This document shows, in pieces, positions 6,724-24,567 of a stretch of DNA of 64,000 bases (position 1 is the first letter of the stretch; each line of letters begins with the position of its first letter). The translations under genes and the position numbers were made by a program. Origin of the DNA: Anaerolineales bacterium (lineage in GTDB: Bacteria; Chloroflexota; Anaerolineae; UBA1429). Under the pieces are notes generated by a model, which searched no databases, was not told the origin of the DNA, and worked only from the letters and a program-made list of their open reading frames with translations. The DNA is taken from positions 4,418 through 68,417 of the forward strand of contig JBKHJO010000003.1 of assembly GCA_046538105.1 (NCBI GenBank). Reading direction: 5' to 3'.

Positions 6724-7116
6724 ATGCTTTTGGAAAAGGTGCTTTCCGTTCTTGACTGTAAATCCATTTCACATGAGGTGGACCCAACCCTTTATGTGGA
6801 GAGAGGGGCTGCGGCGGATCTCATGAGTGACGTGCTGGCCATCAGCCACAGGAATGCCTTATTGCTGACCGGGTTGACCAACCCACAAGTAGTGCGGACG
6901 GCAGAGATGGCAGATATAAGAGCCGTGGTCTTTGTGCGGGGCAAGTATCCCCCACCCGAGACAATTGCCCTGGCGGAAGAAAAAGGGATCACCCTGCTCT
7001 CCTCCGTCTACACCATGTATGAGAGTTGTGGGCGCCTTTATCAGGCAGGATTGAGAGGAGAGGCTATATCCAATCAGGCCGCCGAGAGATGGCGTCAAGC
7101 CTTTGATGGGGATTAG
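6724..7116 (+). CDS. DRTGG domain protein
   Basis: AADLMSDVLA, LLTGLTNPQVVRTAEMAD, VFVRGK, YESCGRLY. Confidence 0.85.
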   Translation: MLLEKVLSVLDCKSISHEVDPTLYVERGAAADLMSDVLAISHRNALLLTGLTNPQVVRTAEMADIRAVVFVRGKYPPPETIALAEEKGITLLSSVYTMYESCGRLYQAGLRGEAISNQAAERWRQAFDGD

Positions 7117-7193
7117 CCAGGACCGGGGTCATGATCTTTGATATTCGCCCGCCGCTCTGGCGATGGGACGCTTTTTGGGGCGGGAGTTGATCT

Positions 7194-8108
7194 GTGGATC
7201 GGGTGCCGACAGAGTTTAGCAAGGTCCAGGAACTGGTCTACGAGCTTAAAATTGACCAGATCATGACCAAAGATGTCATCACCGTGACTCCCTACGCTTC
7301 CATGCGGGAGTTGAGGCGCATTCTGCGTGAGCGAGGCATCTCTGGTGTACCGGTGATGGAAGACGACGATCTCGTGGGCATAGTCGATCTGGAGGATGTG
7401 GTCAAGGCCCTGGAAGAGGGAGCCTTTGCAGACCCTGTATCCGAGAGGATGACCACCAACGTGCAGACCGTACGTGCCGACGAGACGGTGGTAAAAGCGG
7501 TTAACCTGTTCAGCATGTTCGATGTCGGTCGCTTGCCCGTTGTCGACGAAAAGGGAGAACTCGTCGGCGTCCTGACCAAGAGCGATATCGTTCGTGGCCT
7601 GCTCTGGCAGATGGGCGTGCGCTGGCAGGCCGAGGAGATCGAGCAGTATCGGGCAAGCCATATCTTTGAGGATATAGACTCTGACGAGACGACGCTGATC
7701 CTCAAGTACCATGTAGAGCCCCACGACTTTGTCAGCGGCGGTGAGGCTTCCAGCAAGATCAAGCGCGCCCTGAAGCGCCTGGGGGCACAGCCCAAACTTG
7801 TGCGGCGCGTCGCCCTGGCCTCGTATGAGGCAGAGATGAACGTGATGATTCACAGCGAGGGGGGAGAGATCGTCGCCGAGATAGGGACCGATCGCATAGA
7901 GATCACAGCGGCTGATAAAGGCCCTGGCATTGACGATGTCGCAAAGGCGTTGGAGCCGGGGTTTTCTACGGCACCGGATTGGATTCGAGAGTTGGGATTC
8001 GGGGCGGGCATGGGCTTGAGTAATATCAAAGCGTGCTCGGATGAGATGCACCTGGAGTCTGAGGTGGGAGTTGGCACGCAGTTGAGGATAATCTTTGATC
8101 TGGAATAG
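7194..8108 (+). CDS. CBS-pair + RsbT/anti-sigma-like Ser/Thr kinase (HATPase_c) fusion
   Basis: Two N-terminal CBS repeats (MTKDVITV..SGVPV; MTTNVQTV..GRLPVVD), then ASYEAEMNVMIH, DKGPGI, GFSTA, GFGAGMGL. Confidence 0.85.
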   Translation: MDRVPTEFSKVQELVYELKIDQIMTKDVITVTPYASMRELRRILRERGISGVPVMEDDDLVGIVDLEDVVKALEEGAFADPVSERMTTNVQTVRADETVVKAVNLFSMFDVGRLPVVDEKGELVGVLTKSDIVRGLLWQMGVRWQAEEIEQYRASHIFEDIDSDETTLILKYHVEPHDFVSGGEASSKIKRALKRLGAQPKLVRRVALASYEAEMNVMIHSEGGEIVAEIGTDRIEITAADKGPGIDDVAKALEPGFSTAPDWIRELGFGAGMGLSNIKACSDEMHLESEVGVGTQLRIIFDLE

Positions 8109-8124
8109 CCGGTAAAGGAGCAAG

Positions 8125-8484
8125 GTGACAGTTCAAGAGATCGTTGAGGCACTAGAACTGGAAGTTATCGCTGGCACATCTGGCCTGCACAGGGAGGTTA
8201 CAGGGGGATATGCCTCGGACCTGTTGAGCTGTGTGATAGCGGGCGCCAGTAAGGGAAATATCTGGATCACTTTGCAGGCTCATCCTAACATCGTCGCCGT
8301 GGCCGATTTGCTGGAACTGTCGTGCATCGTCGTCAGCGAGGGCATGGAACCCGACGAGGAGACGTTGGGACGGGCGAACGAGAGCGATATGCCTATCCTG
8401 CTCTCCGAGAAGAGCACCTTTACTCTGGTCGGTGAGTTGTTTCAGATGGGCATTCGCGAGTCGGAGGATACAGATCAGGCATAG
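8125..8484 (+). CDS. DRTGG domain protein
   Basis: GGYASDLLSCV, WITLQAHPNIVAVA. Confidence 0.85.
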   Translation: MTVQEIVEALELEVIAGTSGLHREVTGGYASDLLSCVIAGASKGNIWITLQAHPNIVAVADLLELSCIVVSEGMEPDEETLGRANESDMPILLSEKSTFTLVGELFQMGIRESEDTDQA

Positions 8485-8487
8485 AGT

Positions 8488-9228
8488 ATGCAGATCCTGC
8501 TGGCGGATCTACACGTGCATACGGTTCTATCTCCCTGTGCGGAAATCGAGATGATCCCCCCCCTCATCATCAAGAGAGGGCAGGAACTGGGATTGCATAT
8601 GATGGCCATCACGGATCACAATGCAGCAGGGAATGTTATGGCCGTGGAGCGTGCAGCAAAAGGCAGCGGCATCACCATCATTCCCGGTATGGAACTGCAG
8701 ACGAAGGAAGAGGTACATCTGTTGTGCCTTTTTGACACCGCGGAACAGGCACTTGCCTGGCAGGAGATTGTATTCGCACATCTTTCAGCGCGAAAGAACG
8801 AACCAGAGTTTTTTGGCGTGCAACTCCTCGTCGACGAGACGGGCGATCTGCTGGGCAGAAACGAGCGGTTACTTTTAACGTCCGCGGATCTGTCCATTGA
8901 CGAGGCGGTCGAAAGAGTGCGCGAGATGGGAGGACTACCCATCGCCGCGCACGTGGATCGACGCGCCTACAGCCTGTTAGCCAATTTGGGCGTCGTACCA
9001 GAAGGGTTGAATGTGGCGGCTCTGGAGATTTCGAGACAGAGCGCTCCAGAGGATTTTCTGGGCGCACACGAGGAGTTGCGAGGGTGGCCCATGATCGTGT
9101 CAAGCGACGCACATCGCTTGAGCGAGTTGTCCGCCAATATGCGCTTTCGCCTGCGGGAGCCATCTGTCCACGAGATAGAGTTGGCTCTAGAGCAGAGAGA
9201 GGGACGCCGGGCCGAGGTGCTGGCCTGA
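8488..9228 (+). CDS. PHP domain phosphoesterase
   Basis: DLHVHTVLSPC, AITDHN, PGME, EEVH, AHVDR, SSDAH. Confidence 0.9.
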   Translation: MQILLADLHVHTVLSPCAEIEMIPPLIIKRGQELGLHMMAITDHNAAGNVMAVERAAKGSGITIIPGMELQTKEEVHLLCLFDTAEQALAWQEIVFAHLSARKNEPEFFGVQLLVDETGDLLGRNERLLLTSADLSIDEAVERVREMGGLPIAAHVDRRAYSLLANLGVVPEGLNVAALEISRQSAPEDFLGAHEELRGWPMIVSSDAHRLSELSANMRFRLREPSVHEIELALEQREGRRAEVLA

Positions 9229-9302
9229 TCTCAAAGGCCAAATTGCCCGTTGGCTTTTTGGATGAATGTAGGAATGATCATACATCTGTTGGAGGAATTG
9301 AC

Positions 9303-9797
9303 GTGGTAGCAGACGTTACAGAGACCGAGACCTACGAAGAAGAACTGGATTTGGCCCCGCTTGATGAGGCCCTGGATACATATGCAGAGGAGGAGGGGAC
9401 ACTGATCGCCGCGCTTCAGACAGCCCAGGAGTTATACGGCTATCTTCCGGAGCCTATTTTGCGACGGATAGCCCAGCGGCTCGATGCGTCCCTCAGTCAG
9501 GTCTACGAGGTGGCCACTTTTTATGCTCAGTTTTATCTGGAGCGAAGGGGACGACACACGGTGCGCGTCTGTGATGGCACGGCCTGTCACGTCCGTGGAG
9601 CACCCAAAATCATCAGGGCCCTGGAGCGAGAGTTGGGCATTGAGGCGGGCGAGACGACGCCCGATTATCGGGTGACGTTGGAAGTGGTGTACTGTCTGGG
9701 ATCCTGTGGGCTCTCGCCGGTCGCCGTTATCGACGGCGATGTGATCGGCCGGCTGATTCCCGAAAAGGCTGTGGAACTGGTGAACGAACTGGAATAA
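9303..9797 (+). CDS. NuoE/HydC/HoxE-like [2Fe-2S] subunit
   Basis: CDGTAC...CLGSC, VATFY; SD GGAGG before GTG at 9303. Confidence 0.9.
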   Translation: MVADVTETETYEEELDLAPLDEALDTYAEEEGTLIAALQTAQELYGYLPEPILRRIAQRLDASLSQVYEVATFYAQFYLERRGRHTVRVCDGTACHVRGAPKIIRALERELGIEAGETTPDYRVTLEVVYCLGSCGLSPVAVIDGDVIGRLIPEKAVELVNELE

Positions 9798-10363
9798 TGC
9801 GCGAACTCTCGCTTCATATCCTGGATCTTTTACAGAATGCCCTGGAAGCGGGAGCAAGTTATGTCGAACTTGAGATTGTAGAGGATATCGCTCAAAATCG
9901 CCTATCCATATCTGTAGAGGACAACGGACGGGGAATGAGTAAGGAAGCCCTAGCACGTATCGATGACCCTTTCTTCACCACGCGCAGGAGCAGGCGTGTG
10001 GGATTGGGGATCCCGTTGCTCAAAGCAGCCGCCAGACGTTGCAACGGCGATGTAAGCGTCACGTCGAAAATGGCCGTGGGAACCCGGGTGGAGGCGCACT
10101 TTGAGCGGGATCATATCGACAGGGCGCCCTTGGGCGATATGGTCAGCACCCTCTCGGGGTTTATTCTTACCTCTCCGGCAAAGGGGGAAGCGTGTGACAT
10201 GCGCTACACGCATCGCATCGATGGGCGTACCTTTACTTTCGACACGCGGGAGATACGTGAGACTCTGGGGGGCGTTCCGCTAACGCACCCCCGCGTTCGA
10301 CGGTGGATGGAAGATTTTCTGCAGCAGGGGTTCGCGGAGTTACATGGGAACCCCTCTTTTTGA
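9797..10363 (+). CDS. stand-alone HATPase_c (histidine-kinase-like ATPase)
   Basis: MRELSLHILDLLQNA, DNGRGM, DPFFTTR, VGLGIP, HIDRAPLGD. Confidence 0.85.
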   Translation: MRELSLHILDLLQNALEAGASYVELEIVEDIAQNRLSISVEDNGRGMSKEALARIDDPFFTTRRSRRVGLGIPLLKAAARRCNGDVSVTSKMAVGTRVEAHFERDHIDRAPLGDMVSTLSGFILTSPAKGEACDMRYTHRIDGRTFTFDTREIRETLGGVPLTHPRVRRWMEDFLQQGFAELHGNPSF

Positions 10364-10428
10364 CATTATTTTCAGAGTAAGTGAATCCACTTGGTCCTAT
10401 TTAGTGGCGTTTTGAGAGGAGATGAGAT

Positions 10429-10803
10429 ATGCCCAGATTGGAATCACTGGAAGATTTACGTGCCCTGCGCGCTGAGGTGCAGGAGGAGATGACGGTCCGC
10501 GGAGAGACAGAAGCAGTCATCACGGTGGGCATGGGCACATGTGGCATTGCGGCGGGCGCCCGGGAGACCATGCGCGCAATCCTCAGGGAACTGGAAGCCC
10601 GAGATATAGACGCCCACGTCAAGACGGTGGGATGTATCGGCATGTGTGCAAACGAACCGCTGGTGGATATCAAACAAGGCGACGAGCCGCGTATAACCTA
10701 CGGAAACCTGACGGCAGAAAAAGTTCCTCAGTTGATAGAAGAACACCTGATTCAGGGGAACGTCGTTGAGGACTGGGTATTGGGTAGATTGCGAGAAGCG
10801 TAA
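10429..10803 (+). CDS. thioredoxin-like (2Fe-2S) ferredoxin, HndB/HydD-like
   Basis: VGMGTCGIAAGA, VGCIGMCANEP. Confidence 0.85.
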   Translation: MPRLESLEDLRALRAEVQEEMTVRGETEAVITVGMGTCGIAAGARETMRAILRELEARDIDAHVKTVGCIGMCANEPLVDIKQGDEPRITYGNLTAEKVPQLIEEHLIQGNVVEDWVLGRLREA

Positions 10804-10846
10804 TATGACGGATATACGTGATAGAGAGAATGTTGGAGGACAAGTG

Positions 10847-13800
10847 ATGTCGGAACCCGTATATCGGGCAGATGTTCTGGTATGTAGTGGTACAAGTTGT
10901 ACGGCCTCGGGAGCACCCTCGGTGCTTATGGCCCTGAAAGAGGAGATCGGCCGCCGGGGTCTGGAGGAAGAGGTTCACGTGGTAGAGACGGGCTGTCGTG
11001 GCTTTTGCGCCATGGGTCCGGTGATGATCATCTATCCGGAGGGCATCTTCTATTGTCAGATAGAAGCCTCGGATGTCGAAGAAATCGTCGAGGAGACGCT
11101 GGTAAAGGGGCGCGTGGTAGAACGGCTCACCTACGAGGAGCCGAGCACCCATGAGAGCGTTCCTTTTTACGATGATATACCCTTCTATGGCAAACAGCGC
11201 CGTATTACGCTGCGCAACTGTGGCCTCATCGATCCCGAAAGCATCGAGGAGTATATCGCTCGGGGCGGATACGAGGCCCTGGGCAAAGTGTTGAGTTCCA
11301 TGACCCCTGAAGACGTGATCGACGAAGTCAAGAGTTCGGGTCTGCGAGGACGCGGTGGTGCCGGCTTTCTCACAGGACTCAAGTGGGAGTTCGCGCAAAA
11401 GGCTCCCGGCGATATCAAGTATGTCGTCTGCAACGCGGACGAGGGAGACCCGGGCGCTTTTATGGATCGCTCCGTATTGGAGGGAGATCCCCATTCGGTA
11501 CTTGAGGGCATGACCATCGCGGCCTATGCCATCGGCGCCCATGAGGGCTATATCTACTGCCGCGCCGAGTATCCTCTTGCTATCAGGCGCTTGAATATGG
11601 CCATCGCACAGGCCGAGGAGTATGGATTGCTGGGCGAGGGCATCCTGGGTACAGATTTCGACTTTACCATCCGCATCAAAGAGGGGGCTGGCGCCTTTGT
11701 CTGTGGTGAGGAGACGGCGCTCATCGCCTCCATTGAGGGCAAGCGAGGGGAGCCGCGTCCCAGACCGCCTTTCCCCGCCGTTTCGGGCCTGTGGGGCAAG
11801 CCGACGAACAATAACAATGTCAAGAGTTACGCCAACGTCCCCCAGATCATCGCCAATGGTGCAGAGTGGTTCTCCTCTATCGGCACCAAGAGGAGCCCTG
11901 GAACAGCCATCTTTGCCCTTACTGGCAAAGTGAGAAACACGGGCCTGGTAGAGGTTCCCATGGGCATCACCCTGGGAGAGATCATATTTGATATTGGCGG
12001 GGGCGTGCCCGACGGGAAACAATTCAAGGCTGTGCAAACCGGCGGCCCCCTGGGAGGCTGTCTGCCCGCCTCGGGATTGAATCTGAACGTGGACTTTGAT
12101 TCGCTCGAACAAGCCGGCGCGGTGATGGGTTCTGGCGGCATGATCGTCGTCGACGAGGACACCTGCATGGTCGAGTTGAGCAGGTTCTTTCTGACCTTTG
12201 CCGTCGCCGAGTCCTGTGGCAAGTGCGTGCCCTGCCGCGTGGGCGGGAGGCGCATGTTGGAGATATTGACCCGCATCACCGAGGGCAAGGGGAAGATGGA
12301 GGACCTTGACACCATCGAGGAGATCGCGGAGGGTATGGCTTCCAACTCTTTGTGTGCCCTGGGGCAACTCACGCCGGGACCTGTCGTGAGCGCCCTGCGC
12401 TACTTCCGCGACGAGTTCGAGGCCCACATCCTGGAGAAGCGTTGTCCGGCGGGGGTTTGCCCCGATCTGGTGCGCGCCCCCTGTGTGAACGCCTGTCCTG
12501 CGGGAGTCGACGTCTCCAGTTATGTCTCCCTGGTCTCGCAGGGTGAATATGCAGAGGCGTTGGAGATACACCGCAAGCGAAATCCCTTTGCCCTCATCTG
12601 TGGGCGTGTCTGTCCGGCATTTTGCGAGGATCGCTGCCGACGCGGCCAGTTGGACGAGCCAGTGGCCATCCGACATATCAAACGTTTTATGGCCGATCAT
12701 GAGATGGAGAACCCCTGGACGCCATCCCAGTTAGAGCCCGACAAGGACGAGAAGGTGGCCGTCATAGGGGCTGGACCAGCCGGGCTGACGGCTGCACTAC
12801 GCCTGGCTCAGTGGGGGTACGAGGTGACCGTGCATGAGGCGCTGCCCGTGGCCGGGGGGATGATGGCTGTGGGCATCCCAGAATATCGTCTGCCCCGGGA
12901 CATATTACAGATGGAGATCGAGAATATCAAGCGTGCCGGCGTGGAGATCGTCCTCAACAGCGCGTTAGGCAAAGATTTCACCATCGAAGACCTCCTTGAG
13001 GATCAGGGCTACAATGCCGTGATACTGGCAGTTGGCGCCCACGTCAGCCGCTCCCTGCATATTCCCGGCGAGGATCTGGAGGGGGTATGGGGCGGTACCG
13101 ATTTCCTCAAGGATGTAGCCCTGGGGAATTCCCCCGAACTTGTGGGGAAAAGTGTGGCCGTGGTGGGCGGAGGAAACTCGGCCATAGACGCGGCCCGTAC
13201 GGCGATTCGCCTTGGGGCTTTGGACGTGCACCTGGTCTATCGCCGCCGCCGTGAGGACATGCCCGCGGAGGATATAGAGATCAAAGAGGCCCAGGAAGAG
13301 GGCCTGAAACTGCATCTGCTGACCAACCCTACCCGCATCCTGGGCGATGAAAAGGTCGAGGGCATGGAAGTTGTAGAGCAGGAATTGGGCGAGTTCGATA
13401 ACAGCGCCCGCCGCAGCCCCCATCCAAAAGAGGGCAGCGAGTACGTCATGCCCGTGGACGTGGTCATCACCGCCATCGGGCAGGGTGTGGATATTGGCTG
13501 CGTGGATGAGGAATGCGGCATCGAGTTCGAGCGCAATGCCACGGTAAAGGTGAGCGATGTGGGCTCGCAACGAGGCCCATTGCGCACCACGCGAGATGAC
13601 GTGTTCGCCGCTGGCGATGCCGTCCTCGGGCCGGCGACCGTTGTGGAGGCCGTGGATCAGGGCAACAAGGTGGCTCTGGCCGTGGACAAGTACCTACAGA
13701 ATGGTCTGGCCCTTCCCAAAGATGACTGGCTGGCATATGACGAGATCCCCCTGACGTGGGAGATGGAAGAGTATGCGGAGGCGACCCGCCCCGAGATGCC

Positions 13801-13918
13801 CGTTCGAGAGGCGTCCGTCCGTCGCAACGACTGGAGGCAGATCGAACTGGGTTTTGCTGAGAGGGTCTGTCGCGAGGAGTGCAATCGTTGCCTGCGGTGC
13901 GATCTTGAGGAAGAGTAA
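10847..13918 (+). CDS. NuoF/HydB-like FMN-NADH subunit fused to GltD/NfnB-like FAD-NAD(P)H oxidoreductase domain
   Basis: N-terminal CSGTSC..CRGFC; GLRGRGGAGF, NADEGDPGAFMDR, CGEETAL, GGPLGG, CGKCVPC..CALG, H..CPAGVC; then PCVNACP, CGRVCPAFCEDRC, GAGPAG, GIPEYRL, GGGNSAIDAAR, YRR, AAGD, RCLRC. Confidence 0.9.
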   Translation: MSEPVYRADVLVCSGTSCTASGAPSVLMALKEEIGRRGLEEEVHVVETGCRGFCAMGPVMIIYPEGIFYCQIEASDVEEIVEETLVKGRVVERLTYEEPSTHESVPFYDDIPFYGKQRRITLRNCGLIDPESIEEYIARGGYEALGKVLSSMTPEDVIDEVKSSGLRGRGGAGFLTGLKWEFAQKAPGDIKYVVCNADEGDPGAFMDRSVLEGDPHSVLEGMTIAAYAIGAHEGYIYCRAEYPLAIRRLNMAIAQAEEYGLLGEGILGTDFDFTIRIKEGAGAFVCGEETALIASIEGKRGEPRPRPPFPAVSGLWGKPTNNNNVKSYANVPQIIANGAEWFSSIGTKRSPGTAIFALTGKVRNTGLVEVPMGITLGEIIFDIGGGVPDGKQFKAVQTGGPLGGCLPASGLNLNVDFDSLEQAGAVMGSGGMIVVDEDTCMVELSRFFLTFAVAESCGKCVPCRVGGRRMLEILTRITEGKGKMEDLDTIEEIAEGMASNSLCALGQLTPGPVVSALRYFRDEFEAHILEKRCPAGVCPDLVRAPCVNACPAGVDVSSYVSLVSQGEYAEALEIHRKRNPFALICGRVCPAFCEDRCRRGQLDEPVAIRHIKRFMADHEMENPWTPSQLEPDKDEKVAVIGAGPAGLTAALRLAQWGYEVTVHEALPVAGGMMAVGIPEYRLPRDILQMEIENIKRAGVEIVLNSALGKDFTIEDLLEDQGYNAVILAVGAHVSRSLHIPGEDLEGVWGGTDFLKDVALGNSPELVGKSVAVVGGGNSAIDAARTAIRLGALDVHLVYRRRREDMPAEDIEIKEAQEEGLKLHLLTNPTRILGDEKVEGMEVVEQELGEFDNSARRSPHPKEGSEYVMPVDVVITAIGQGVDIGCVDEECGIEFERNATVKVSDVGSQRGPLRTTRDDVFAAGDAVLGPATVVEAVDQGNKVALAVDKYLQNGLALPKDDWLAYDEIPLTWEMEEYAEATRPEMPVREASVRRNDWRQIELGFAERVCREECNRCLRCDLEEE

Positions 13919-13923
13919 CGGAG

Positions 13924-14514
13924 ATGTCGATGGCGCTTGAGATGGTGGAGCGGGATGTGCAGGGAGCATTTGCTCGTGGGAGATCCCTGGCGCTGAATAT
14001 ATCCTCCCTTCTTCTCGTCGGTTATGGCAACACCAGCCGCCGCGATGATGGGGTGGCCCTGCACATCCTCCGCTGCCTGAGGAGACGCCTCGGACTTTTG
14101 CTGGACGAGTGGGAGGCCGGCACCATACTGTGTCCCCATGACGGGGCGTACAAGCCGCTGGCCATGATCTGTGTGCATCAACTTGCTCCAGAGTTGGCCG
14201 AGTTGGCAGCCCAGTACGATGCCGTCATCTTTATCGATGCTCACGTGGCGGCTGCGGATTGGGAGCCTGTGGCCTGGCAGGAGATATCCCCCGCCTATCA
14301 GGCGGGGATCGTCAGTCATCACCTCAAACCCAGTGTCGTATTGGCATTGAGCCATTCCCTTTACGGGGGCCATCCAAAGGGCTATACGCTCTCCGTTTTG
14401 GGACACGATTTCGATTTTGGTGAGGAATTATCGTCGAATACTTTACCTTTGGCCCAGGAAGCGGTGTTTTTTCTACTGGGTTTGATACAGTCCGAAGGAT
14501 TGGCCCCGACGTGA
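13924..14514 (+). CDS. [NiFe]-hydrogenase maturation protease (start may lie ~60 nt downstream)
   Basis: LVGYGNTSRRDDGVA, HQLAPE, IFIDA, SHH. Confidence 0.85.
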   Translation: MSMALEMVERDVQGAFARGRSLALNISSLLLVGYGNTSRRDDGVALHILRCLRRRLGLLLDEWEAGTILCPHDGAYKPLAMICVHQLAPELAELAAQYDAVIFIDAHVAAADWEPVAWQEISPAYQAGIVSHHLKPSVVLALSHSLYGGHPKGYTLSVLGHDFDFGEELSSNTLPLAQEAVFFLLGLIQSEGLAPT

Positions 14515-14644
14515 GCATGCTATTTTAGATATTGCGAAATTCGAAAAAATCTTACTAATACTCTTTAAATTCGTAGATTTAGACGGTATAATGCGATAAT
14601 GATCGTATTTGCCCGGTGGCCCTTTTGTAGGAGGAACCAAGATT

Positions 14645-16366
14645 ATGCCAGATGTACGTATCACGATCGATGGTAAGGAGGTTTCGGTACCTGCGGGAAG
14701 CACCGTTCTCGAAGCGGCAGAGGCTGCGGGGATCGAGATCTCTACATTGTGTGATCATCCGGCGGTAGAACCCATCGGTGCCTGCCGCATGTGTCTCGTG
14801 GAAATAGAAAAGCAGCGTGTGTTGCAGCCCGCGTGTACCTTTCCCGTATCGGATGGTATGGTTGTCCACACGCACTCGGAAAAGGTGATCAAAGCGCGTC
14901 GTTTTGTGCTGCAGTTGCTTTTCTCGGAACGCAACCATTTCTGTATGTACTGCCAGATGAGTGGCAGTTGTGAACTCCAGGATCTCGCGTATGAGTACAA
15001 TCTGGATCACTGGACGTATGAGAGGCCCTTTCCCCAGCTTCCGGTCGATGCCTCGCGCGAATACTTTATCATGGATCACAACCGCTGCATTCTGTGTCGG
15101 CGGTGCATCCGTGTATGCGATGAACTTGTGGGCAACAAGACGTTGGGCATCAAGAACCGTGGAACCAACAGCATGATCATCGCCGATCTGGATATCCCCT
15201 TTGGTGAATCGAGCTGCATTTCGTGTGGTACCTGCCTTCAGGTATGTCCCACCGGGGCATTGGCCGACCGCGCCAGCGCCTATATGGGCGCCGAGGACGA
15301 GATAGACAGGATCAAGTCGCGGTGTGTGGCCTGCAGCATAGGCTGCGGCGTGGAACTCATCGTGCGCAACAATCGCGTCATTCGCATCGAGGGTGATTGG
15401 GATGCAAAGCCGAATGACGGTCTGCTCTGTGAGATAGGGCGATTCCATCCCCTGCATGAGCAACGTCGGCGGGTATACAAGCCCCTTGTCAACGGGGAAG
15501 ATGGCTTGCAAGAGACGAATTGGGAGGAGGCCGTGGTCCTGGCCGCCGAGAAGGTAAAGGGTGCGGGCGAGGATCTCGTTGCGGTCGTTTCGGATTTTGC
15601 CTCTATGGAGGCTGCTGAAGCCATAGTCGATCAGTTGCCAGGCCAGCAGGTGGCTATGGACGGCCCCGCGCCGCGCGTGGAGAGCGCACCACTGTCCACG
15701 CTGGATGAGGCCGATCTCTTTATCGTGGTCGATACCGATCTCACCGTCGATTATCAGGTGGCGGGTTTTGCCATAAAGCGGGGCTTTCGTCACAGGGGCG
15801 CCCGACTTGTCATCATAGACGACGAGGAGAATGGGCTGGATCCCTGGGCTTCTGAGAAACTCGCTTTGCAAGAGGCGAAAGAGGTTCTGGACAGGGCCGA
15901 GGACGCAGAGTATCCCGTCATCATCTGCGATATGGAGGGTGTCGAGTTGGCACAATCCCTATCGGCAGGTCTTTCCGATGCCGATCTGGTCGTTATGGCC
16001 CCTGGAGGAAACAGCCTTGGTCTGAAGGAAGCGGGCATAGAGAGAGCCTTTGAAGAAAGCGAAAAGGCATCTGTATACTATGTACTGGCTGCTGAGGCGC
16101 CAGAGATGGATGAGGCCCTGGCAGGTGCTCTGGACGAGGCCGATTTCGTGATCGTGCAGGCTTCTTTCCGGGAGCCCTGGGAAGAGGTGGCGGACGTGAT
16201 ACTGCCCTCTCCCATCACCTCGGAGAAGGATGGCACGATGATCAATACGGAAGGGACTGTCGGGCAAATAGTGGCCGGCGTGGACAGGTCGTTGCCCGGT
16301 GAGGAAAGAGTTATCGAGAGGATCAACAGGCACATTCGGGCGGCCGCTCCCTCTGCCGGGGAATAG
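14645..16366 (+). CDS. NuoG/HoxU/HydA-like Fe-S subunit with degenerate molybdopterin-oxidoreductase-like C-terminus
   Basis: TLC..GACRMC..PAC (2Fe-2S), HFCMYC..C, CILCRRC..C, CISCGTC..CP, CVACSIGC..LC; C-terminal ADVILPS..EKDGTMINTEG; no H-cluster motifs. Confidence 0.85.
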   Translation: MPDVRITIDGKEVSVPAGSTVLEAAEAAGIEISTLCDHPAVEPIGACRMCLVEIEKQRVLQPACTFPVSDGMVVHTHSEKVIKARRFVLQLLFSERNHFCMYCQMSGSCELQDLAYEYNLDHWTYERPFPQLPVDASREYFIMDHNRCILCRRCIRVCDELVGNKTLGIKNRGTNSMIIADLDIPFGESSCISCGTCLQVCPTGALADRASAYMGAEDEIDRIKSRCVACSIGCGVELIVRNNRVIRIEGDWDAKPNDGLLCEIGRFHPLHEQRRRVYKPLVNGEDGLQETNWEEAVVLAAEKVKGAGEDLVAVVSDFASMEAAEAIVDQLPGQQVAMDGPAPRVESAPLSTLDEADLFIVVDTDLTVDYQVAGFAIKRGFRHRGARLVIIDDEENGLDPWASEKLALQEAKEVLDRAEDAEYPVIICDMEGVELAQSLSAGLSDADLVVMAPGGNSLGLKEAGIERAFEESEKASVYYVLAAEAPEMDEALAGALDEADFVIVQASFREPWEEVADVILPSPITSEKDGTMINTEGTVGQIVAGVDRSLPGEERVIERINRHIRAAAPSAGE

Positions 16367-16445
16367 CCGTCGGATCTGTGGCCTTGAACATGAATATAAA
16401 TCCAGTATAAAGCAATCCGGCAGTGATCTTTGAGGAGGATACATA

Positions 16446-16991
16446 GTGGCAAAAGTAACAGTTTGCACAGATTGGTTGGACGTCTGCTCCGGCTGCCATA
16501 TGTCACTTTTGGACGTCGACGAACGCCTTGTGCAGCTATTGGAGCATATACAACTTCTCTCATCGCCCATCACGGACCTGAAACATCCCCCCAAAGAAGG
16601 ATGTGATATAGGTATTCTGACGGGAGCGGTGAGTAATGACCACCAATTGGCGGTGGCCGAAGAGATGCGCGAGCGATGCGATCTGCTCATCTCCCTGGGA
16701 GATTGTGCAGTGTTTGGCGGGATCTGTACCATGCGCAATTTCTTTGACGTGGAGGATGTGTTAAAGAGGGCCTACGTGGATACAGAAAGCACGGCCCCCG
16801 GGCAAGGGGTGCCTCGTTCGACCGAGATCGCTAAACTGTTCCCCCGCGTCAAGGCTGTAAACGATGTGGTGGAGGTCGATCTGCACGTTCCGGGTTGTCC
16901 CCCGCCGGCCGACGGGATTTGGTTCGTTCTCACCGAACTCTTGGAGGGCCGTATTCCCGTCATTCCAGAAGAGTTGTTGACCTATGATTGA
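16446..16991 (+). CDS. group 3 [NiFe]-hydrogenase small subunit (HoxY/HydS-like)
   Basis: CSGCHMS, GDCAVFGG, PGCPP; short single-cluster form. Confidence 0.9.
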   Translation: MAKVTVCTDWLDVCSGCHMSLLDVDERLVQLLEHIQLLSSPITDLKHPPKEGCDIGILTGAVSNDHQLAVAEEMRERCDLLISLGDCAVFGGICTMRNFFDVEDVLKRAYVDTESTAPGQGVPRSTEIAKLFPRVKAVNDVVEVDLHVPGCPPPADGIWFVLTELLEGRIPVIPEELLTYD

Positions 16992-17044
16992 TAGATGTGG
17001 AAGCCGCTTGCTTCACAGGCTTTTTTAAATAGGAGAGATAGATA

Positions 17045-18463
17045 ATGGGTCGAAAAATAGCAATTGAACCAGTAACGCGTATTGAGGGACACGCGCGCGT
17101 CACGGTACACCTCGATGACGACGGTCAGGTCGAACACGCCTACATGCACGTGGATCAGTTTCGGGGCTTTGAAAAGTTTTCCGAGGGGCGTATGTACTAT
17201 GAGATGCCCGTGATCACGCCACGGATCTGTGGTATCTGCCCCGTGAGTCATCATCTGACTTCGGCCAAGGCGTGCGATGAGCTGGTGGGGGCCGAACCTC
17301 CCAGACCAGCCACGTTAATGCGCAGACTGCTCCACAAGGGACAGTTGATACAGTCGCACTCCATGCACTTTTTCCATCTGGCCTCGCCCGATCTGCTCCT
17401 CGGCTTTGACGCCGATCCGGCCGTACGCAACGTGGCCGGTCTGTTGGAAGTGAATCCTGATTTGGCACTGAAAGCGGTCAAACTGCGCAAGTACGGTCAG
17501 GAGATCATCGAGCGCGTGGGCGGGCGCCGGATTCACATGCACTGGGCCGTGCCCGGCGGCGTGAGCGCTCCCCTCTCACAGGAGGATCGAGATTACATAC
17601 TCTCCCAGGTCGATGAGATGATCGGGTATACTCAGGAGGGGATCGCGATTGCCAAGGATTGGTTGGAGGCCAACCAGGACGTGGTGAAGAACTTTGCCAA
17701 TTTCTCCTCCAACTATTTGGGTATGGTGAACGACGGCGCCCTGGAAGTGTATGATGGTCCTGTGCGCCTGGTGGACAAGGATGGGGAATTACTGGAAGAG
17801 TTTGACGGGCGAAACTATTTGGACTATATCGAAGAGTGCGTCGAGGATTGGACCTATCTAAAGTTCCCCTACTATAGAGAGATGGGATGGCCGGAGGGGG
17901 CCTATCGCGTGGCGCCCCTGGGGCGCCTGAACGTCGCGGAGCGTATCTCGACGCCGCTGGCGAACGAGGAGTTCAAGGCGTTCAAGGCCCTGTCCGACGG
18001 ACCCGTGGAGCCTTCTCTCTACTATCATTATGCGCGTCTCATCGAGGCTCTCTATTGCATAGAGCGAGTACGCGAGTTGTGCGAGGACGAGGATATACTC
18101 TCCCAGGATATCCTCAACACGCGCGTCGATATGCAAGAGGAGGGTGTGGGGGTTATCGAGGCGCCCCGCGGCACCCTGTGGCATCACTATTGGGTGAACG
18201 ATGATGGCGTGATACAGAAGGCCAACCTCATTGTGGCCACAGGCAACAATAATTGGGCCATGTGCAAATCTGTGGATATGGTGGCCAAGGCCTTTGTGGA
18301 TGGCAACGATCTGACGGAGGGCATGCTCAACCGCGTCGAGGCCGCCATCCGCTGCTACGATCCCTGTCTCTCCTGTTCCACCCACGCCCTGGGCCAGATG
18401 CCCATAGTCATCGATGTCGTCAATGCGGAAGGCGAAAGCGTAAAGCAGTTCCACCGCGACTGA
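17045..18463 (+). CDS. group 3 [NiFe]-hydrogenase large subunit (HoxH/HydL-like)
   Basis: TRIEGH, RGFE, L1 RICGICPVSH, EAPRGTL, L2 DPCLSCSTH plus a cleavable C-terminal extension. Confidence 0.95.
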   Translation: MGRKIAIEPVTRIEGHARVTVHLDDDGQVEHAYMHVDQFRGFEKFSEGRMYYEMPVITPRICGICPVSHHLTSAKACDELVGAEPPRPATLMRRLLHKGQLIQSHSMHFFHLASPDLLLGFDADPAVRNVAGLLEVNPDLALKAVKLRKYGQEIIERVGGRRIHMHWAVPGGVSAPLSQEDRDYILSQVDEMIGYTQEGIAIAKDWLEANQDVVKNFANFSSNYLGMVNDGALEVYDGPVRLVDKDGELLEEFDGRNYLDYIEECVEDWTYLKFPYYREMGWPEGAYRVAPLGRLNVAERISTPLANEEFKAFKALSDGPVEPSLYYHYARLIEALYCIERVRELCEDEDILSQDILNTRVDMQEEGVGVIEAPRGTLWHHYWVNDDGVIQKANLIVATGNNNWAMCKSVDMVAKAFVDGNDLTEGMLNRVEAAIRCYDPCLSCSTHALGQMPIVIDVVNAEGESVKQFHRD

Positions 18464-18486
18464 TATCGGATACGTGCACATTGCCA

Positions 18487-18525
18487 AAAAGACACGGCCT
18501 TTTGACGTAAAGGGCCGTGTCTTTT
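18487..18525. terminator. intrinsic terminator after the hydrogenase large subunit
   Basis: Inverted repeat AAAAGACACGGCC...GGCCGTGTCTTTT. Confidence 0.75.
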
Positions 18526-18569
18526 ACACTCTGGAGAGATAGAGATTCCCACGAATGGGGGGAAAAGAT

Positions 18570-19352
18570 ATGTCGATGAAATCGCCGCAGGAGATTATCG
18601 CCGCGTCCTGCAATGCCGGATGCGGCAAGGCAGATCTATCCATCGTCGAGGAAGTGGTGTTAGGATTCTTGGCGGGAACCTTTGTTGCCCTGGGGGGTAT
18701 GCTGGCCATCATGGGCCAGGGAGATGTGAGGCTCACTCTGCCGGCGTTCGCCTTTGCCGGGCTTGGTCCCGTGGGCATCCTGCTGGTCGTCCTCACCGGG
18801 GCCGAACTTTTTACCATCAATTGCGTCGTCATGCCCCCCACCTGTTTGGTGGGGGCGGTTCCCTGGCAAAAGATGCTGCACAACTGGCTTTGGGTCTACC
18901 TGGGAAACTTGCTAGGCGCTCTGTTCTCGGCGCTGGCTCTGGCCTATGGGACGGGAATCATCAACGTGAATGCCGGCGGTCCAGGCGCAGAGGCGGGGGC
19001 CGCGGCGGCAGTGCTGGCAGAGAGCAAACTGACGCCTGGTTGGGGCGCGCTGCTCCTCCGTGGTGTGTGGTGCGGCTGGCTTCTTGGATTGGGCGTCTGG
19101 TTGGCTTTTGCTACCGATGACCTCCTGGCCAAGTTGGCAGGTCTGTGGCTTCCCATCGTCGCCTTTATGCTGTTAGGCTTTCAGCATGGGATTGCCAATA
19201 TCTTTTTTATCCCTCTGGGAATGATGAACGGCGCCGCAGTAGGGGTCCTGCAGTTTCTATTCGGTAACCTGCTGCCCGTGACCCTGGGCAACGTCATCGG
19301 GGGCAGTGGCCTCGTCGGTGTGCTCTACTGGTGGTTGTACGCCAAGGAGTAG
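18570..19352 (+). CDS. formate/nitrite transporter (FNT) family channel
   Basis: GFLAGTFVALG, GAELFT, VYLGNLLG, GFQHGIAN, VTLGNVIGG. Confidence 0.9.
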   Translation: MSMKSPQEIIAASCNAGCGKADLSIVEEVVLGFLAGTFVALGGMLAIMGQGDVRLTLPAFAFAGLGPVGILLVVLTGAELFTINCVVMPPTCLVGAVPWQKMLHNWLWVYLGNLLGALFSALALAYGTGIINVNAGGPGAEAGAAAAVLAESKLTPGWGALLLRGVWCGWLLGLGVWLAFATDDLLAKLAGLWLPIVAFMLLGFQHGIANIFFIPLGMMNGAAVGVLQFLFGNLLPVTLGNVIGGSGLVGVLYWWLYAKE

Positions 19353-19384
19353 CCTTCGCTTTCAGAGCAGAAGGAGTTTTGCAG

Positions 19385-20224
19385 ATGACAGAAGTAGCGT
19401 TCGCCCGTCCCTGGCGTGCCTGGTCGTTCGATGAGGATGGGGGTGAGGAAAAAGAGATCGAAATAGTGCGTGAGGAGCCCCTTTCCCTGCATATCAACGG
19501 AAGACAGGCGGCTCTTTTAATGCGCATGCCTGGCAGGGAAAGGGAGTTGGTGGCCGGCTTTTGCATCAGCGAGGGGCTGGTCAAAGATTTCTCCGATGTG
19601 CTGACCATTCAGCATTGTGATCGGACCTCGATCGTTGCTGAGGAGGGCTCGGAGGATGAAGCGGTCATATCGCGCAACCGCGCCCACGTCGTGGTGCGTC
19701 CGGAGGCCCTGCAAGAGGAGGCCCGCCTAGAAGTCGTGCGCCTGATCCGCGCGGGCTGTGGCGCCGTGGATGTGGATCGCTCCGAACTACCACTGCCCAC
19801 GGTGAGCGATGGTCCTGAAATCGACTATCAGATACTCTTTGGTCTTTCGAGGGACATGCGCGACGCCCAGCAAGTGCACAAACGCGTGGGCGGTGTCCAT
19901 GCCGCGGCTCTCTATGATGTCGCGGGGCAGCGAATGGTGCTTTGCGAGGACGTGGGGCGCCACAATGCGGTGGACAAGGTCATCGGTTACTGTCTCCTAC
20001 ACGAGATATCCCTCTCGGACAAACTGCTGCTCTGCTCCGGTCGCCTCAGTTACGAGATGGTCACCAAGGCCATCCGCATGGATATACCGGCGCTGGCTTC
20101 CATGTCCTCTCCCACCTCGTTAGCCGTGCAGATCGCCGACCAGTTCAACCTGACCATGATCGGCTACCTGGGCAGACGGCGCATGACAGTGTACACGCAT
20201 CCCGAGCGGCTGCGCGCTCAGTGA
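19385..20224 (+). CDS. fdhD: formate dehydrogenase accessory sulfurtransferase
   Basis: EEPL, GFCISEG, GCG, GGVHAAAL, EDVGRHNAVDK, SGRLSYEMVTK, SSPTSLA. Confidence 0.9.
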   Translation: MTEVAFARPWRAWSFDEDGGEEKEIEIVREEPLSLHINGRQAALLMRMPGRERELVAGFCISEGLVKDFSDVLTIQHCDRTSIVAEEGSEDEAVISRNRAHVVVRPEALQEEARLEVVRLIRAGCGAVDVDRSELPLPTVSDGPEIDYQILFGLSRDMRDAQQVHKRVGGVHAAALYDVAGQRMVLCEDVGRHNAVDKVIGYCLLHEISLSDKLLLCSGRLSYEMVTKAIRMDIPALASMSSPTSLAVQIADQFNLTMIGYLGRRRMTVYTHPERLRAQ

Positions 20225-22659
20225 TCGTTGGCGGCGATGGTAAGACGTGTTAGTCGATATTCCTCGCGACTCGTCCCGTCCTTGGGGTGCAGCATGAGAT
20301 CATAAGTGCCTGGCGCGATGTCGGGCACGGGAAAACGATGGATATCCCGCACCTTTTCTTCCTCCCGCCACTCCTCCGGGGGGAATCTTTCTCCCGTTAT
20401 CTGTAAGTCCCTTTCCCACAGGATCTGATCATCTTTCTTCAGATTCAGGATCATCTCGCCGGGGGCGGTATCTCCTTCTGCCTCTCGGGTCCAAAAGAAG
20501 ATCAGGGTGGCCGTCTCGTCTGGATGTAGGGCATCGGCTTCCCCCTCGTGCTCATGTCCCAGGCGATAGAGGCTGTATCCTAGAAGGCGTAACCGACCCC
20601 ATCGCGCTTCCGCCCGCATCGGTATATCATGCTGCATATCGAGGGCCGACGACGGTGGTGGGAGGGAGGGGGCCTGTACGGCGATCTCCTGCAGGTCAAT
20701 GGTGTCCCCTTTCTCATCCCCTCCTTTGACGGGCAGGCGAACTCCATCGGCAAGATTATACAGTCCCACGCGCAGTTGGTGCGCGCCGGGGGGCGTCCCC
20801 AGGGGGATGAGGATGCCGTGGTTGTCCGTGATCACCTCTCCCACCTCCCAATCGGTGGTCAGGCGTCTTCCCCCTACGGGCTCGGTGTCCCGTTGGGCCA
20901 CGATGTTGCCCCGTTCGTCCACCAGATGTAGGAATACCTTGTAACGCTCCGCCAGAGGCGCCAGTGCCTCCCAAAGGAGGGACAGTTGGACGATCTCTCC
21001 ACTCTCGGGCTGCGGCGTGAGCAGCGTGTAGCCTCGCAGACGCACCTTTTCCCCCAATATGTAATCAGTTCGCTCCCAGAGTTTCCCGCTCGCTTCTCGG
21101 GGTACGGCATAGACGAGCAAGCGCAAGTTGCCAAACCAACTGTCCATGGCTTTGTAACAGTGACCATCGAGCCAGCCCTCCACAAACCCCTGGGGATCAC
21201 TTTCCCGCGTGGCCCAAAAGATGCCATAGATGCGTCGGTGTTGCGCCACGATACCCTGCAGAGCCCGTTCTGTGCGCACCTCGTCCAGGGGACGCTCTTT
21301 GGGCAGGGGATACAGGGAAAGATCGCCGTGATAATAGTAATCGACGGTCTCGATCTGGGAGGGAGCGTTGATAACGATGGCATCCTGGGAGGACGCCGTG
21401 GCCTCGATATAGGCCACGGCCCCCCGATAGTCATCGCGGAAAAAGGTCTCGTCCGTGTACAGTCCGGCCAGAGAATGGGCCGATGCGACACAGACGGCAA
21501 GGCTGAGAAAGGCGGCCACTACTCCCTCCACCCAACGCCAGCCTGTGACCGCGCGCCGTACCAGTCGCCCCAAAGCCAAGATGCCCCGCGCCTGTAGGAT
21601 ATGATATACCGGAGCGACCAGGAGCAGGAATTTTTGTTTGTACATGGGGCGTCTCAGGGAGAGAATGAAGATCAGTCCCAAGGGAAGTAGCAGGTACAGA
21701 GCCATGTCTGTATGCAGGGGGGCAATATCCCGTCCTTTCTCGCCATGCGGACGGTGGAGGATGCCTGCCAGGACGAGGAGACATAGTCCTACGGCGTATA
21801 ATCGGGTACGGAGCCCCCCTTTGACTGTCACCCCCAGGGAAAGGACCCGGCACACGTCGGATGCAAAATAGTCCAGAGAAAAGGCCGCGCGCACGGCGGG
21901 CCAGCCGCATAGTGCCTGCCAGGACATAACCAGCCAGGGGAGATAGATGGCAATCACGATACACTGCACAGCACCCCAATAAAGGAGTGGAGGCCATCTC
22001 TTTCTTATTATAGTTTGTTCCCCTTTGCGGGTAGTGCCCCATAGCCAACGTACAGAAAAGGCCACATTCTGGGTAAAGAGTAGAGCGAACCCGAAATAGT
22101 GAGTGTAAACGAGGAGGGCGCTGATCAAGATATAGCCGATAGCCCGGAGGATAATCGCGCCCGTCTCCCCTTTTCCTTCACGGTCGCCAAGCAGCGCGTT
22201 AGCCAGGCCCTCGTAGGCTAGCATGGAGAGGACGCCAAAGAGGGCCAGGAATATGTACATGCGCGTCTCTTGGGAATAGTAGATGGCAAAGGGGGAGATG
22301 GCGGCCAAAAAGGCGGCCAGGAAGCCGGAAATCGTGCCAAAGGGGCGGGCCAGGAGATAGACGACGACCACCAGGGCCACCCCCCCCAGGGCGCTGAGCG
22401 CACGGACGCCCCGCTCGCTGGTGCCGGCGAGCCTTACCCAACAGTGCAGCATATAGTAGTAGAGGGGGGGGTGGATATCGTGGGAGGCGTTGCGCGTGAT
22501 GGTGGTCAGATCGCGCTGGGCCAGGGCCACACTCGTACCCTCGTCGTTCCACAGGCTCTGGGCTCCCAGCCTGTGAAAGCGCAGGGCAAGGGCCAGAAGG
22601 AGGATGACGAGCAGGATCAGAGCGTTGTGGCATCCCTTTTGTCCCCGAATGCGCATCAT
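20218..22659 (-). CDS. GT-C fold (GT39/PMT_2-like) membrane glycosyltransferase with extracytoplasmic domains
   Basis: QSLWNDE, DIHPPLYY, YYSQETRMY, YTHYF, many TM helices; C-terminal YKVFLHL..GLY domain. Confidence 0.8.
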   Translation of the reverse strand: MMRIRGQKGCHNALILLVILLLALALRFHRLGAQSLWNDEGTSVALAQRDLTTITRNASHDIHPPLYYYMLHCWVRLAGTSERGVRALSALGGVALVVVVYLLARPFGTISGFLAAFLAAISPFAIYYSQETRMYIFLALFGVLSMLAYEGLANALLGDREGKGETGAIILRAIGYILISALLVYTHYFGFALLFTQNVAFSVRWLWGTTRKGEQTIIRKRWPPLLYWGAVQCIVIAIYLPWLVMSWQALCGWPAVRAAFSLDYFASDVCRVLSLGVTVKGGLRTRLYAVGLCLLVLAGILHRPHGEKGRDIAPLHTDMALYLLLPLGLIFILSLRRPMYKQKFLLLVAPVYHILQARGILALGRLVRRAVTGWRWVEGVVAAFLSLAVCVASAHSLAGLYTDETFFRDDYRGAVAYIEATASSQDAIVINAPSQIETVDYYYHGDLSLYPLPKERPLDEVRTERALQGIVAQHRRIYGIFWATRESDPQGFVEGWLDGHCYKAMDSWFGNLRLLVYAVPREASGKLWERTDYILGEKVRLRGYTLLTPQPESGEIVQLSLLWEALAPLAERYKVFLHLVDERGNIVAQRDTEPVGGRRLTTDWEVGEVITDNHGILIPLGTPPGAHQLRVGLYNLADGVRLPVKGGDEKGDTIDLQEIAVQAPSLPPPSSALDMQHDIPMRAEARWGRLRLLGYSLYRLGHEHEGEADALHPDETATLIFFWTREAEGDTAPGEMILNLKKDDQILWERDLQITGERFPPEEWREEEKVRDIHRFPVPDIAPGTYDLMLHPKDGTSREEYRLTRLTIAANDH

Positions 22660-22663
22660 CTTT

Positions 22664-24484: not shown

Positions 24485-24567
24485 ACCGTTTCCCTCGTGC
24501 AGCGTGTCGTGTGTGTTCTTGCTGGGGGCTTTATGGTCGACCATGGCCTATGGGGGCGAACCTACGG

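Follow-up and report, generated by a model that had tools for sequence, protein, structure and literature searches.

A HydABCSL-type [NiFe]-hydrogenase operon in which HydB carries a GltD/NfnL-type module in place of its ferredoxin-binding domain

We analysed a 64,000-nucleotide stretch of DNA from an Anaerolineales bacterium (the window; all positions are numbered over its full length). The operon at 9303-18463 on the forward strand, part of a wider gene array at 6724-20224 on the same strand, encodes, judged by homology, a soluble [NiFe]-hydrogenase of the HydABCSL type (Bfu family). In its HydB subunit the ferredoxin-binding domain has almost certainly been exchanged for a module with folds for flavin adenine dinucleotide (FAD) and NADPH. 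The fusion is real and common in nature, and the design is apparently undescribed. With this module, the operon may tie H2 directly to both the NADH and the NADPH pools.

Subunits of the hydrogenase and the exchange at the C-terminus of HydB

The predicted subunits were searched against all sequences of the PDB. The best match of HydB was chain B of the Acetomicrobium mobile enzyme (7t2r_B, E 6.1e-261, phmmer), and that of HydA was 7t2r_A (E 1.6e-88). HydL matched 7t2r_D (E 3.5e-175), 5xf9_D (2.2e-130) and 5odc_F (1.4e-124), and was placed as group 3, nearest to the A. mobile HydL and then to one structure of group 3d and one of group 3c. The soluble hydrogenase (SH) of H. thermoluteolus and Mvh trailed far behind the A. 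mobile subunits. Both cysteine pairs of the Ni-Fe site are present in HydL (RICGIC and DPCLSC). A first-pass annotation, made from the DNA letters alone, had described the operon as HydABCSL-like, and this identification stood, as the best matches of HydB, HydL and HydA are all chains of 7t2r. Among the features of the Bfu family, HydSL of group 3, a HydA without the H cluster, the HydB core and HydC are present, and the C-terminal ferredoxin-like domain with the B3 and B4 [4Fe-4S] clusters is absent. All the genes named earlier were recovered on the forward strand from coordinates, Pfam matches and ribosome sites. They are as follows.

9303-9797, +, HydC, NuoE/HoxE-like, thioredoxin-like [2Fe-2S] protein (Pfam 2Fe-2S_thioredx, E 8.4e-48)
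9797-10363, +, HisK-like HATPase_c protein (Pfam)
10429-10803, +, small thioredoxin-like [2Fe-2S] protein, HydD-like (Pfam)
10847-13918, +, HydB, 1023 aa (the open reading frame (ORF) opens at 10766; likely start ATG 10847)
10847-12478, +, HydB core, residues 1-544: N-terminal [2Fe-2S], flavin mononucleotide (FMN)/NAD(H) site, SLBB, B1 bundle, Zn/'B2' hinge
12479-13918, +, GltD/NfnL-like module of HydB, residues 545-1023 (479 aa; Pfam Fer4_20, Pyr_redox_2)
13924-14514, +, [NiFe] maturation endopeptidase, HydP (NCBIfam TIGR00072, E 5.4e-11)
14645-16366, +, HydA, NuoG-like (Pfam Fer2_4, NADH-G_4Fe-4S_3, Fer4, Molybdop_Fe4S4)
16446-16991, +, HydS, [NiFe] small subunit (Pfam Oxidored_q6; NCBIfam VhuG-like below cut-off)
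17045-18463, +, HydL, group 3 [NiFe] large subunit (RICGICPVSH, DPCLSCSTH; C-terminal extension for processing)

A GGAGG-like ribosome site precedes the start of every operon gene. By homology, HydC would carry the C1 cluster. HydA has Pfam-predicted sites for a [2Fe-2S], a His-type [4Fe-4S] and 2x[4Fe-4S] clusters, followed by Molybdop_Fe4S4 and a vestigial molybdopterin fold; it gave no Pfam match to the H-cluster domain Fe_hyd_lg_C. HydP scored 42.7 bits with TIGR00072, slightly below the cut-off of 47.45, and the Pfam scan gave no family for it.

HydB is read in a single frame, with the Pfam domains in the order 2Fe-2S_thioredx, Complex1_51K, SLBB, NADH_4Fe-4S, Fer4_20 and Pyr_redox_2. The motifs pointed out earlier were all located in it: EGDPGAFM (11441-11464), GGPLG (12041-12055) and HILEKRCPAGVC (12425-12460) in the core, and GAGPAG (12767-12784), GGGNSA (13166-13183) and YRR (13238-13246) in the module. 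Residues 5-544 align with residues 3-542 of the 597 of 7t2r_B, and the alignment then stops (phmmer); the core is ~70% identical to 7t2r_B (Foldseek). For A. mobile, Feng et al. 2022 (PMC8880783) name C438, H525, C531 and C536 as the B2 ligands and give position C476 as Cys or Thr. Their counterparts in the window are C440, H527, C533 and C538, with T478 for C476. The B2 site was later seen as a Zn hinge in front of a mobile C-terminal domain (PMC9499530; PMC12018979), and in T. sibiricus NfnABC this C-terminal domain was shown experimentally to be the ferredoxin site (PMC12018979). In the unfused HydB of related Anaerolineae, the hinge is followed by two CxxCxxCxxxCP motifs (C-x2-C-x2-C-x3-CP). 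Aligned with 7t2r_B and with these unfused relatives, the window HydB has no such pair after its hinge; instead PCVNACP, the C-x3-CP of Fer4_20, stands ~7-8 residues past the last Zn/B2 ligand.

The module matched 9bov_A (C. saccharolyticus NfnA) with 398 bits, 9n5u_A (T. sibiricus NfnA) with 397, 8oh5_C (S. ovata StnC) with 361 and 4ylf_B (T. maritima NfnB) with 307. Its predicted cluster ligands are C546, C550, C585, C589, C593, C597 and K612. The cluster next to the FAD of C. saccharolyticus NfnA is ligated by C108, C147, C151 and K170 (PMC11829005), and C550, C589, C593 and K612 of the window align with these. RCLRC (13886-13900), five residues before the end of HydB, aligns with RCLEC of NfnA/StnC. 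We infer that it supplies the last two ligands of the second cluster, which would then be held by C546, C597, C1015 and C1018. The YRR motif for NADPH is common to the window HydB and the NADPH-specific Stn and NfnABC enzymes. An AlphaFold2 model of HydB (predicted local distance difference test, pLDDT, 89.1; predicted template modelling score, pTM, 0.86) has a confident linker, and its halves superpose on BfuB chains and on NfnL-like domains (Foldseek).

These observations uphold the earlier proposal that the C-terminal 2x[4Fe-4S] domain is missing and that a GltD-type module with two cluster sites, a FAD fold and a YRR-type NADPH fold stands in its place. The label 'GltD/NfnB-like' was right about the two clusters and the FAD and NADPH folds, but the above bit scores place the module nearer to the NADPH-input domain of NfnABC/Stn, which is non-bifurcating, than to NfnB. 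The statement that the ferredoxin arm has been replaced by a second flavin site is correct for the architecture, because the lost C-terminal domain is the ferredoxin site of T. sibiricus NfnABC; what it says of function is conditional.

Conservation, partner modules and neighbourhood of the fusion

Conservation was scored in 166 fused HydB homologues. The eight cysteines of the module (C546, C550, C585, C589, C593, C597, C1015 and C1018) are kept in 166/166, as are the Zn ligands C440, H527, C533 and C538. K612 and R799 are each kept in 165/166 and R800 in 166/166. In a 29-sequence alignment reaching down to 35% identity, seven of the eight module cysteines are invariant and C585 is kept in ~90%. 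The best 120 protein clusters measure 899-1054 aa and match at 69-100% identity and 88-100% coverage; the named ones are from Chloroflexota. Public records name the fused homologues NuoF, HndC, 'FAD-dependent oxidoreductase' or Hox.

The assembly behind the window is of metagenome type and has 130 contigs, and this is what speaks for an artefact of assembly or gene calling. We consider such an artefact practically excluded. The best 120 clusters just described are of fused length, and 67 of the best 80 genome-contig loci, in independent assemblies, have a fused HydB. These loci come from Anaerolineae, Desulfobacterota, Acidobacteriota, Planctomycetota, Armatimonadota, Poribacteria and a Nealsonbacteria bin. 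Among 301 sampled genomes of the same class, 107 match a 151-residue query across the junction; by a hand count, 95 of them span the junction in a HydB-like open frame and 12 have only unfused or short forms. Contigs of four runs (X1-X4) bridge 12478/12479 with 0-1 differences, all four runs being of one study and X1 possibly the source. The misassembly that the first-pass annotation had allowed for is therefore contradicted by the four runs, by the 95/301 class genomes and by the intact ligands of all 166 proteins.

Among the 67 fused loci, the partner module could be judged in 50, and 17 were too short. HydS and HydL lie downstream in 29/67, and in 3 more HydS is followed by the contig end, so that the fused B subunit stands beside a [NiFe] module in 32/50 judged loci. 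In 16/67 the A subunit is at least 850 aa long and was counted as formate dehydrogenase (FDH) type; 2/67 are other. Four of the long A subunits are FDH alpha subunits by Pfam, each read through one in-frame TGA, and one fused locus (L064) encodes an [FeFe] HydA by Pfam. In three Anaerolineales loci, two fused B subunits stand in tandem: a second hydC, hydD-like gene and fused hydB follow the [NiFe]-type operon (L027 19216-23905, L053 21253-23553, L060 21082-23340).

We built a quick LG+G4 tree of 77 HydB cores. Several of its long branches were flagged, and it shows interleaving, not direction. On it, the fused forms are intermingled with the unfused ones, and so are the three partner types with one another. 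At least 5 changes are needed to explain the fused/unfused label by parsimony, and an unfused clade (98*) is nested within the 18-row clade (97*) that includes the window HydB. As fused and unfused forms interleave on the tree, we read it as saying that the two kinds of HydB C-terminus have been exchanged repeatedly at one point.

The genes flanking the operon in the array are as follows.

6724-7116, +, DRTGG protein, accessory or regulatory gene upstream of hydC (Pfam)
7194-8108, +, CBS+HATPase protein (Pfam)
8125-8484, +, second DRTGG protein (Pfam)
8488-9228, +, PHP protein (Pfam)
18555-19352, +, FocA-like formate/nitrite channel, directly downstream of hydL (Pfam)
19331-20224, +, FdhD, after FocA (Pfam)

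Upstream genes were counted in the 50 fused loci with at least 4.5 kb of upstream sequence. The small [2Fe-2S] HydD-like gene is directly upstream of fused hydB in 49/50, hydC is kept in 47/50 and the HATPase_c gene in 32/50. Homologues of the DRTGG, CBS+HATPase, DRTGG and PHP genes lie upstream in 30-31/50, and this set is presumably regulatory. Downstream, a FocA-FdhD pair also follows FdhA in fused loci of the FDH type, for example L003, L009 and L013. In the source genome (91% complete), no FdhA was found above cut-off, and the TIGR01591 matches are the vestigial fold in HydA only. As the sibling FDH-type operons end in FdhA-FocA-FdhD, the FocA-FdhD pair of the window is probably a remnant of a formate-dehydrogenase version of the operon, an older one in which FdhA may have given way to the hydrogenase module. 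The rest of the window holds ordinary housekeeping and fermentative metabolism genes, and no hyp genes were found in its 64 kb. Two long ORFs at 20221-24544 on the reverse strand (828 and 626 aa) gave no Pfam family at E 1e-10; the first resembles a multi-pass membrane protein, judged from its sequence.

Possible functions of the complex

By homology, H2 would be split at the Ni-Fe site of HydL, and electrons would reach the B1-FMN-C1 centre of HydBC by way of HydS and the clusters of HydA; NAD+ would be reduced there at FMN. In the relatives, C1 of the C subunit delivers low-potential electrons to the C-terminal ferredoxin-binding domain, and it swings from 21.8 to 10.4 Å of B3/B4 (PMC12018979). 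This second outlet, which in the relatives runs from the mobile C1 through the C-terminal clusters to ferredoxin, would here end in the GltD clusters and FAD. The lost domain is both the ferredoxin site and the delivery point of C1. On the simplest view, NADP(H) at the new FAD would take the place of ferredoxin, with NAD(H) still at FMN and no canonical ferredoxin site. NADP(H) is probably a substrate of the enzyme. The whole reading, of a hydrogenase that couples NAD(H) and NADP(H), we hold with slightly less than even confidence.

In fermenting Anaerolineae, the coupled enzyme would run mostly backwards, making H2 from NADH and NADPH without free ferredoxin. NfnAB and 2-oxoacid:ferredoxin oxidoreductases encoded elsewhere would supply the NADPH from reduced ferredoxin, and the source genome has POR-like genes and a canonical NfnAB pair. 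No [FeFe] hydrogenase was found in this 91% complete genome, and no RnfC above cut-off. The NfnAB pair and three further [NiFe] large-subunit-like genes were seen at C121 (L085 1807-4134), C119, C43 and C14. The in-vivo potentials are given as ~-280 mV for NADH and ~-380 mV for NADPH (Schut et al. 2022, Table 1). By our own Nernst estimate, a NADH/NADPH pair averaging ~-330 mV could allow H2 up to ~100 Pa, versus a few Pa for NADH alone. It is conceivable, though we rate it as doubtful, that a large, unrecognised branch of the Bfu family, with [NiFe], [FeFe] and FDH modules and with the window enzyme among its members, ends its C1-gated low-potential arm in NADP(H) and makes H2 or formate by ferredoxin-independent confurcation of NADPH and NADH. 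With equally limited confidence, this branch in Chloroflexota, Desulfobacterota, Acidobacteriota, Planctomycetota and others might use the in-vivo gap between NADH and NADPH as an energy lever.

The residues said to mark bifurcating beta subunits were compared. Such subunits have Ala or Glu and Met at T. maritima positions 232 and 234, Phe and not Tyr at 367, and GGPSG in the SLBB domain in all cases (Losey et al. 2020). EGDPGAFM of the window gives A204 and M206, both present in 166/166 fused proteins, and the complex-I-type NuoF of the same genome has EGEPGTFK, with the non-bifurcating T and K; the Ala and Met thus fit the bifurcating pattern, as had been noted. The Phe of VDFDSL, put forward with them, is not diagnostic, as A. 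mobile HydB has Tyr and the complex-I-type NuoF has Phe, and we discarded it as a marker. The diagnostic Phe would map near AEWF (F342), a placement made by offset from two other anchors of Losey et al. and not by aligning T. maritima HydB itself. Both AEWF and GAGAF of the window have a Phe where the other NuoF of the genome has Tyr. The replacement of GGPSG by GGPLG, also noted before, was confirmed. It is a lineage trait, with Leu in 164/166 fused proteins and in 11/13 unfused ones with a ferredoxin-type end; it was rejected as a mark of the fusion, since the unfused relatives have it too.

Several points weigh against the coupled reading. NAD and NADP have the same standard potential, so that coupling can pay only by way of their ratios in vivo and would bring a modest advantage over a plain NAD(P)H hydrogenase. 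The SLBB loop reads GGPLG, not the GGPSG of bifurcating beta subunits. Residues 377 (11975-11977) and 412 (12080-12082) are mostly Gly and Asn in the fused proteins, versus Arg and Asp in the unfused ones, A. mobile HydB and A. woodii HydB (7q4v_B), and Gly377/Asn412 may reflect a remodelled docking surface. However, the covariation of R377G/D412N with the fusion (raw 95% and 92% versus 8%) comes down to 4-5 independent contrasts with p ~0.5, and we do not count it as evidence. Under the definition given by Schut et al. 2022, a BfuB that has no B3/B4 should not bifurcate.

A further point comes from a family of ~650-aa proteins which join a B1 four-helix bundle (NADH_4Fe-4S) to Fer4_20 and Pyr_redox_2 with the same linker length as in the window HydB. 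They are devoid of an FMN domain and of Zn ligands, are not accompanied by HydC, and lie in Rex-beta-FdhA clusters in 3/3 inspected loci (L082 8271-13110, L083 7449-12291, L084 3792-8729). Together with FdhA, the ~650-aa protein, as an unusual beta subunit, appears to form an NADP-type formate dehydrogenase of two subunits. FdhA in these clusters is split at an in-frame stop. From this domain composition, the GltD clusters of the family must exchange electrons with B1 or with the FdhA clusters, which favours uncoupled wiring.

If the GltD clusters of the window HydB were likewise wired to B1, H2 would come to equilibrium with NAD(H) at FMN and, independently of this, with NADP(H) at FAD. Neither bifurcation nor confurcation would then take place, and the enzyme could also act as an NADPH:NAD+ transhydrogenase. 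We regard this uncoupled wiring, the main rival of the coupled reading, as possible but rather unlikely. The equal linker of the ~650-aa proteins, whose GltD chain can pass electrons only to B1 or FdhA clusters, argues for it, and so does GGPLG. The non-bifurcating S. wolfei and S. aciditrophicus enzymes also are without B3/B4 (Losey et al. 2017, 2020). However, the fused family keeps the Zn ligands, which the ~650-aa family has lost. It also keeps HydC, the N-terminal [2Fe-2S] domain, the A/M signature and, as placed by offset, the Phe. In the model, helices 441-455 and 461-478 run from the Zn ligands to the B1 ligands and would place the hinge and B1 at opposite ends of the bundle, which weakly disfavours direct wiring.

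In NfnAB/NfnSL, the two [4Fe-4S] clusters of the subunit homologous to the GltD module lead to ferredoxin. Ferredoxin, or the small [2Fe-2S] protein of the operon, might accordingly dock at the GltD clusters and make the complex a hydrogenase-Nfn hybrid for H2, NAD, NADP and ferredoxin. The small thioredoxin-like [2Fe-2S] gene does adjoin fused hydB in 49/50 loci, and the genome makes reduced ferredoxin, judged by its POR-like genes. We nevertheless consider such a hybrid unlikely. The module is nearer to the NfnABC/Stn domains, the FAD of which is argued to be non-bifurcating and the clusters of which feed an internal chain, and its Lys-ligated cluster is typical of NfnABC/Stn, whereas NfnL has Glu (PMC11829005; PMC12018979). 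The distal cluster would be completed by the protein's own C-terminal tail, beside the HydB core. The HydD homologue was not in the purified A. mobile enzyme (PMC8880783).

That the enzyme is an ordinary NAD-linked bidirectional hydrogenase of the Hox/SH kind, with an extra domain that is inactive or serves another acceptor or NADH, is very improbable, although HoxE and HoxU are the top or near-top NCBIfam names for HydC and the HydA N-terminus and public records carry the names given above. HydC scores 157.8 bits with HoxE versus a cut-off of 224 and is below or near the cut-offs of the HoxE and NuoE models; HydA scores 258.9 with HoxU versus 333, over its first 230 residues only. The features of group 3d Hox/SH enzymes, a short HoxU and a HoxF without Zn hinge or extra domains, are not seen here, and the H. 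thermoluteolus SH subunits score far below those of HydABCSL. The invariance of the cluster, FAD and NADPH-fold residues in 166 proteins of several phyla argues against a dead domain, and the YRR motif is that of NADPH-specific enzymes.

Significance and comparison with known systems

No description of a HydB/BfuB-GltD fusion, with or without a [NiFe] partner, was found in the full-text literature searched, subscription-only papers and the supplementary clade tables of Schut et al. 2022 lying outside it. The fusion is not described in the available portions of PMC9304861, PMC11406978, PMC6405883, PMC8097209, PMC5736913 and bioRxiv 10.1101/2021.07.06.451242. The first-pass annotation had suggested that the pairing with a [NiFe] module may be uncharacterised; this agrees with the literature search, but the pairing is not rare and is one of three partner types. 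Schut et al. 2022 state that every Bfu enzyme keeps the cofactors of its B and C subunits; they list NiFe-Bfu for Synergistetes and Halorhabdus only.

Anaerolineae and sulfate-reducer relatives dominate digesters, sediments and mats, and the fusion bears on how they dispose of NAD(P)H as H2 or formate. To our knowledge, the low-potential branch of every Bfu enzyme with a studied structure leads to a ferredoxin-binding domain at its end. A natural and abundant variant in which exactly this domain is replaced is a ready-made test of the C1-gated branch, and can show whether bifurcation works between the NADH and NADPH pools. Genome annotation is affected as well, as the fused genes now pass as NuoF, HndC, 'FAD-dependent oxidoreductase' or Hox.

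The 'glutamate synthase-linked' [FeFe] hydrogenases of group A2 are also GltD-linked, and their role is given as undetermined (HydDB, PMC5037454). They have another metal centre, and the HydDB rule for them is a GltD without NuoF, whereas the GltD of the window is fused to NuoF/HydB.

NfnAB/NfnSL (T. maritima 4ylf, P. furiosus 5jca) has the same fold and cofactors as the module, namely two [4Fe-4S] clusters, FAD and NADPH. It is less similar to the module than NfnABC/Stn (307 versus 398 bits), and the window operon has no NfnA/S partner; the genome's canonical NfnAB pair lies at another place. Bifurcation in NfnSL takes place at the FAD itself.

The HydAB(C) enzymes from S. wolfei and S. aciditrophicus resemble the window in having a beta subunit without B3/B4. 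They are NADH-dependent, non-bifurcating and ferredoxin-independent, and operate when the H2 pressure is low (Losey et al. 2017, 2020). Their beta subunits carry T/S and K/S/A, a Tyr and no GGPSG, and an additional flavin module is absent from them. The window, unlike them, has A/M, a Phe as placed by offset, GGPLG, a FAD site and two further clusters.

The A. mobile NiFe-HydABCSL (7t2r/7t30, PMC8880783) has the same subunits and a near-identical operon, including HisK-like, HydD-like and protease genes; the HisK-like protein is not a subunit of that enzyme (Feng et al. 2022, PMC8880783). The HydB core (~70% identical), Zn/B2 ligands, N-terminal [2Fe-2S], FMN, HydA without H cluster and group 3 HydSL are alike. 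However, A. mobile HydB ends in a 55-residue 2x[4Fe-4S] domain (B3/B4) where the window has the 479-residue FAD/NADPH module. GGPSG in A. mobile corresponds to GGPLG in the window, HydA has 692 aa there versus ~573 aa here, and only in the window does the protease gene lie between hydB and hydA.

NfnABC/Stn (S. ovata 8oh5, C. saccharolyticus 9bov, T. sibiricus 9n5u) provides the closest relative of the C-terminal half of HydB. Both have a Lys-ligated cluster beside FAD, a second cluster presumably completed by the RCLxC segment that stands after the flavin domains, the YRR fold and a HydBC-type core. The A subunit of NfnABC/Stn contains the module, flanked by the N-terminal [2Fe-2S] and the NuoG/Fdh-like domains; NADPH electrons feed B1-FMN-C1 as a mid-potential donor, and the B subunit retains its ferredoxin domain. 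In the window, the module is at the C-terminus of the B subunit, and the A-side input is occupied by a hydrogenase.

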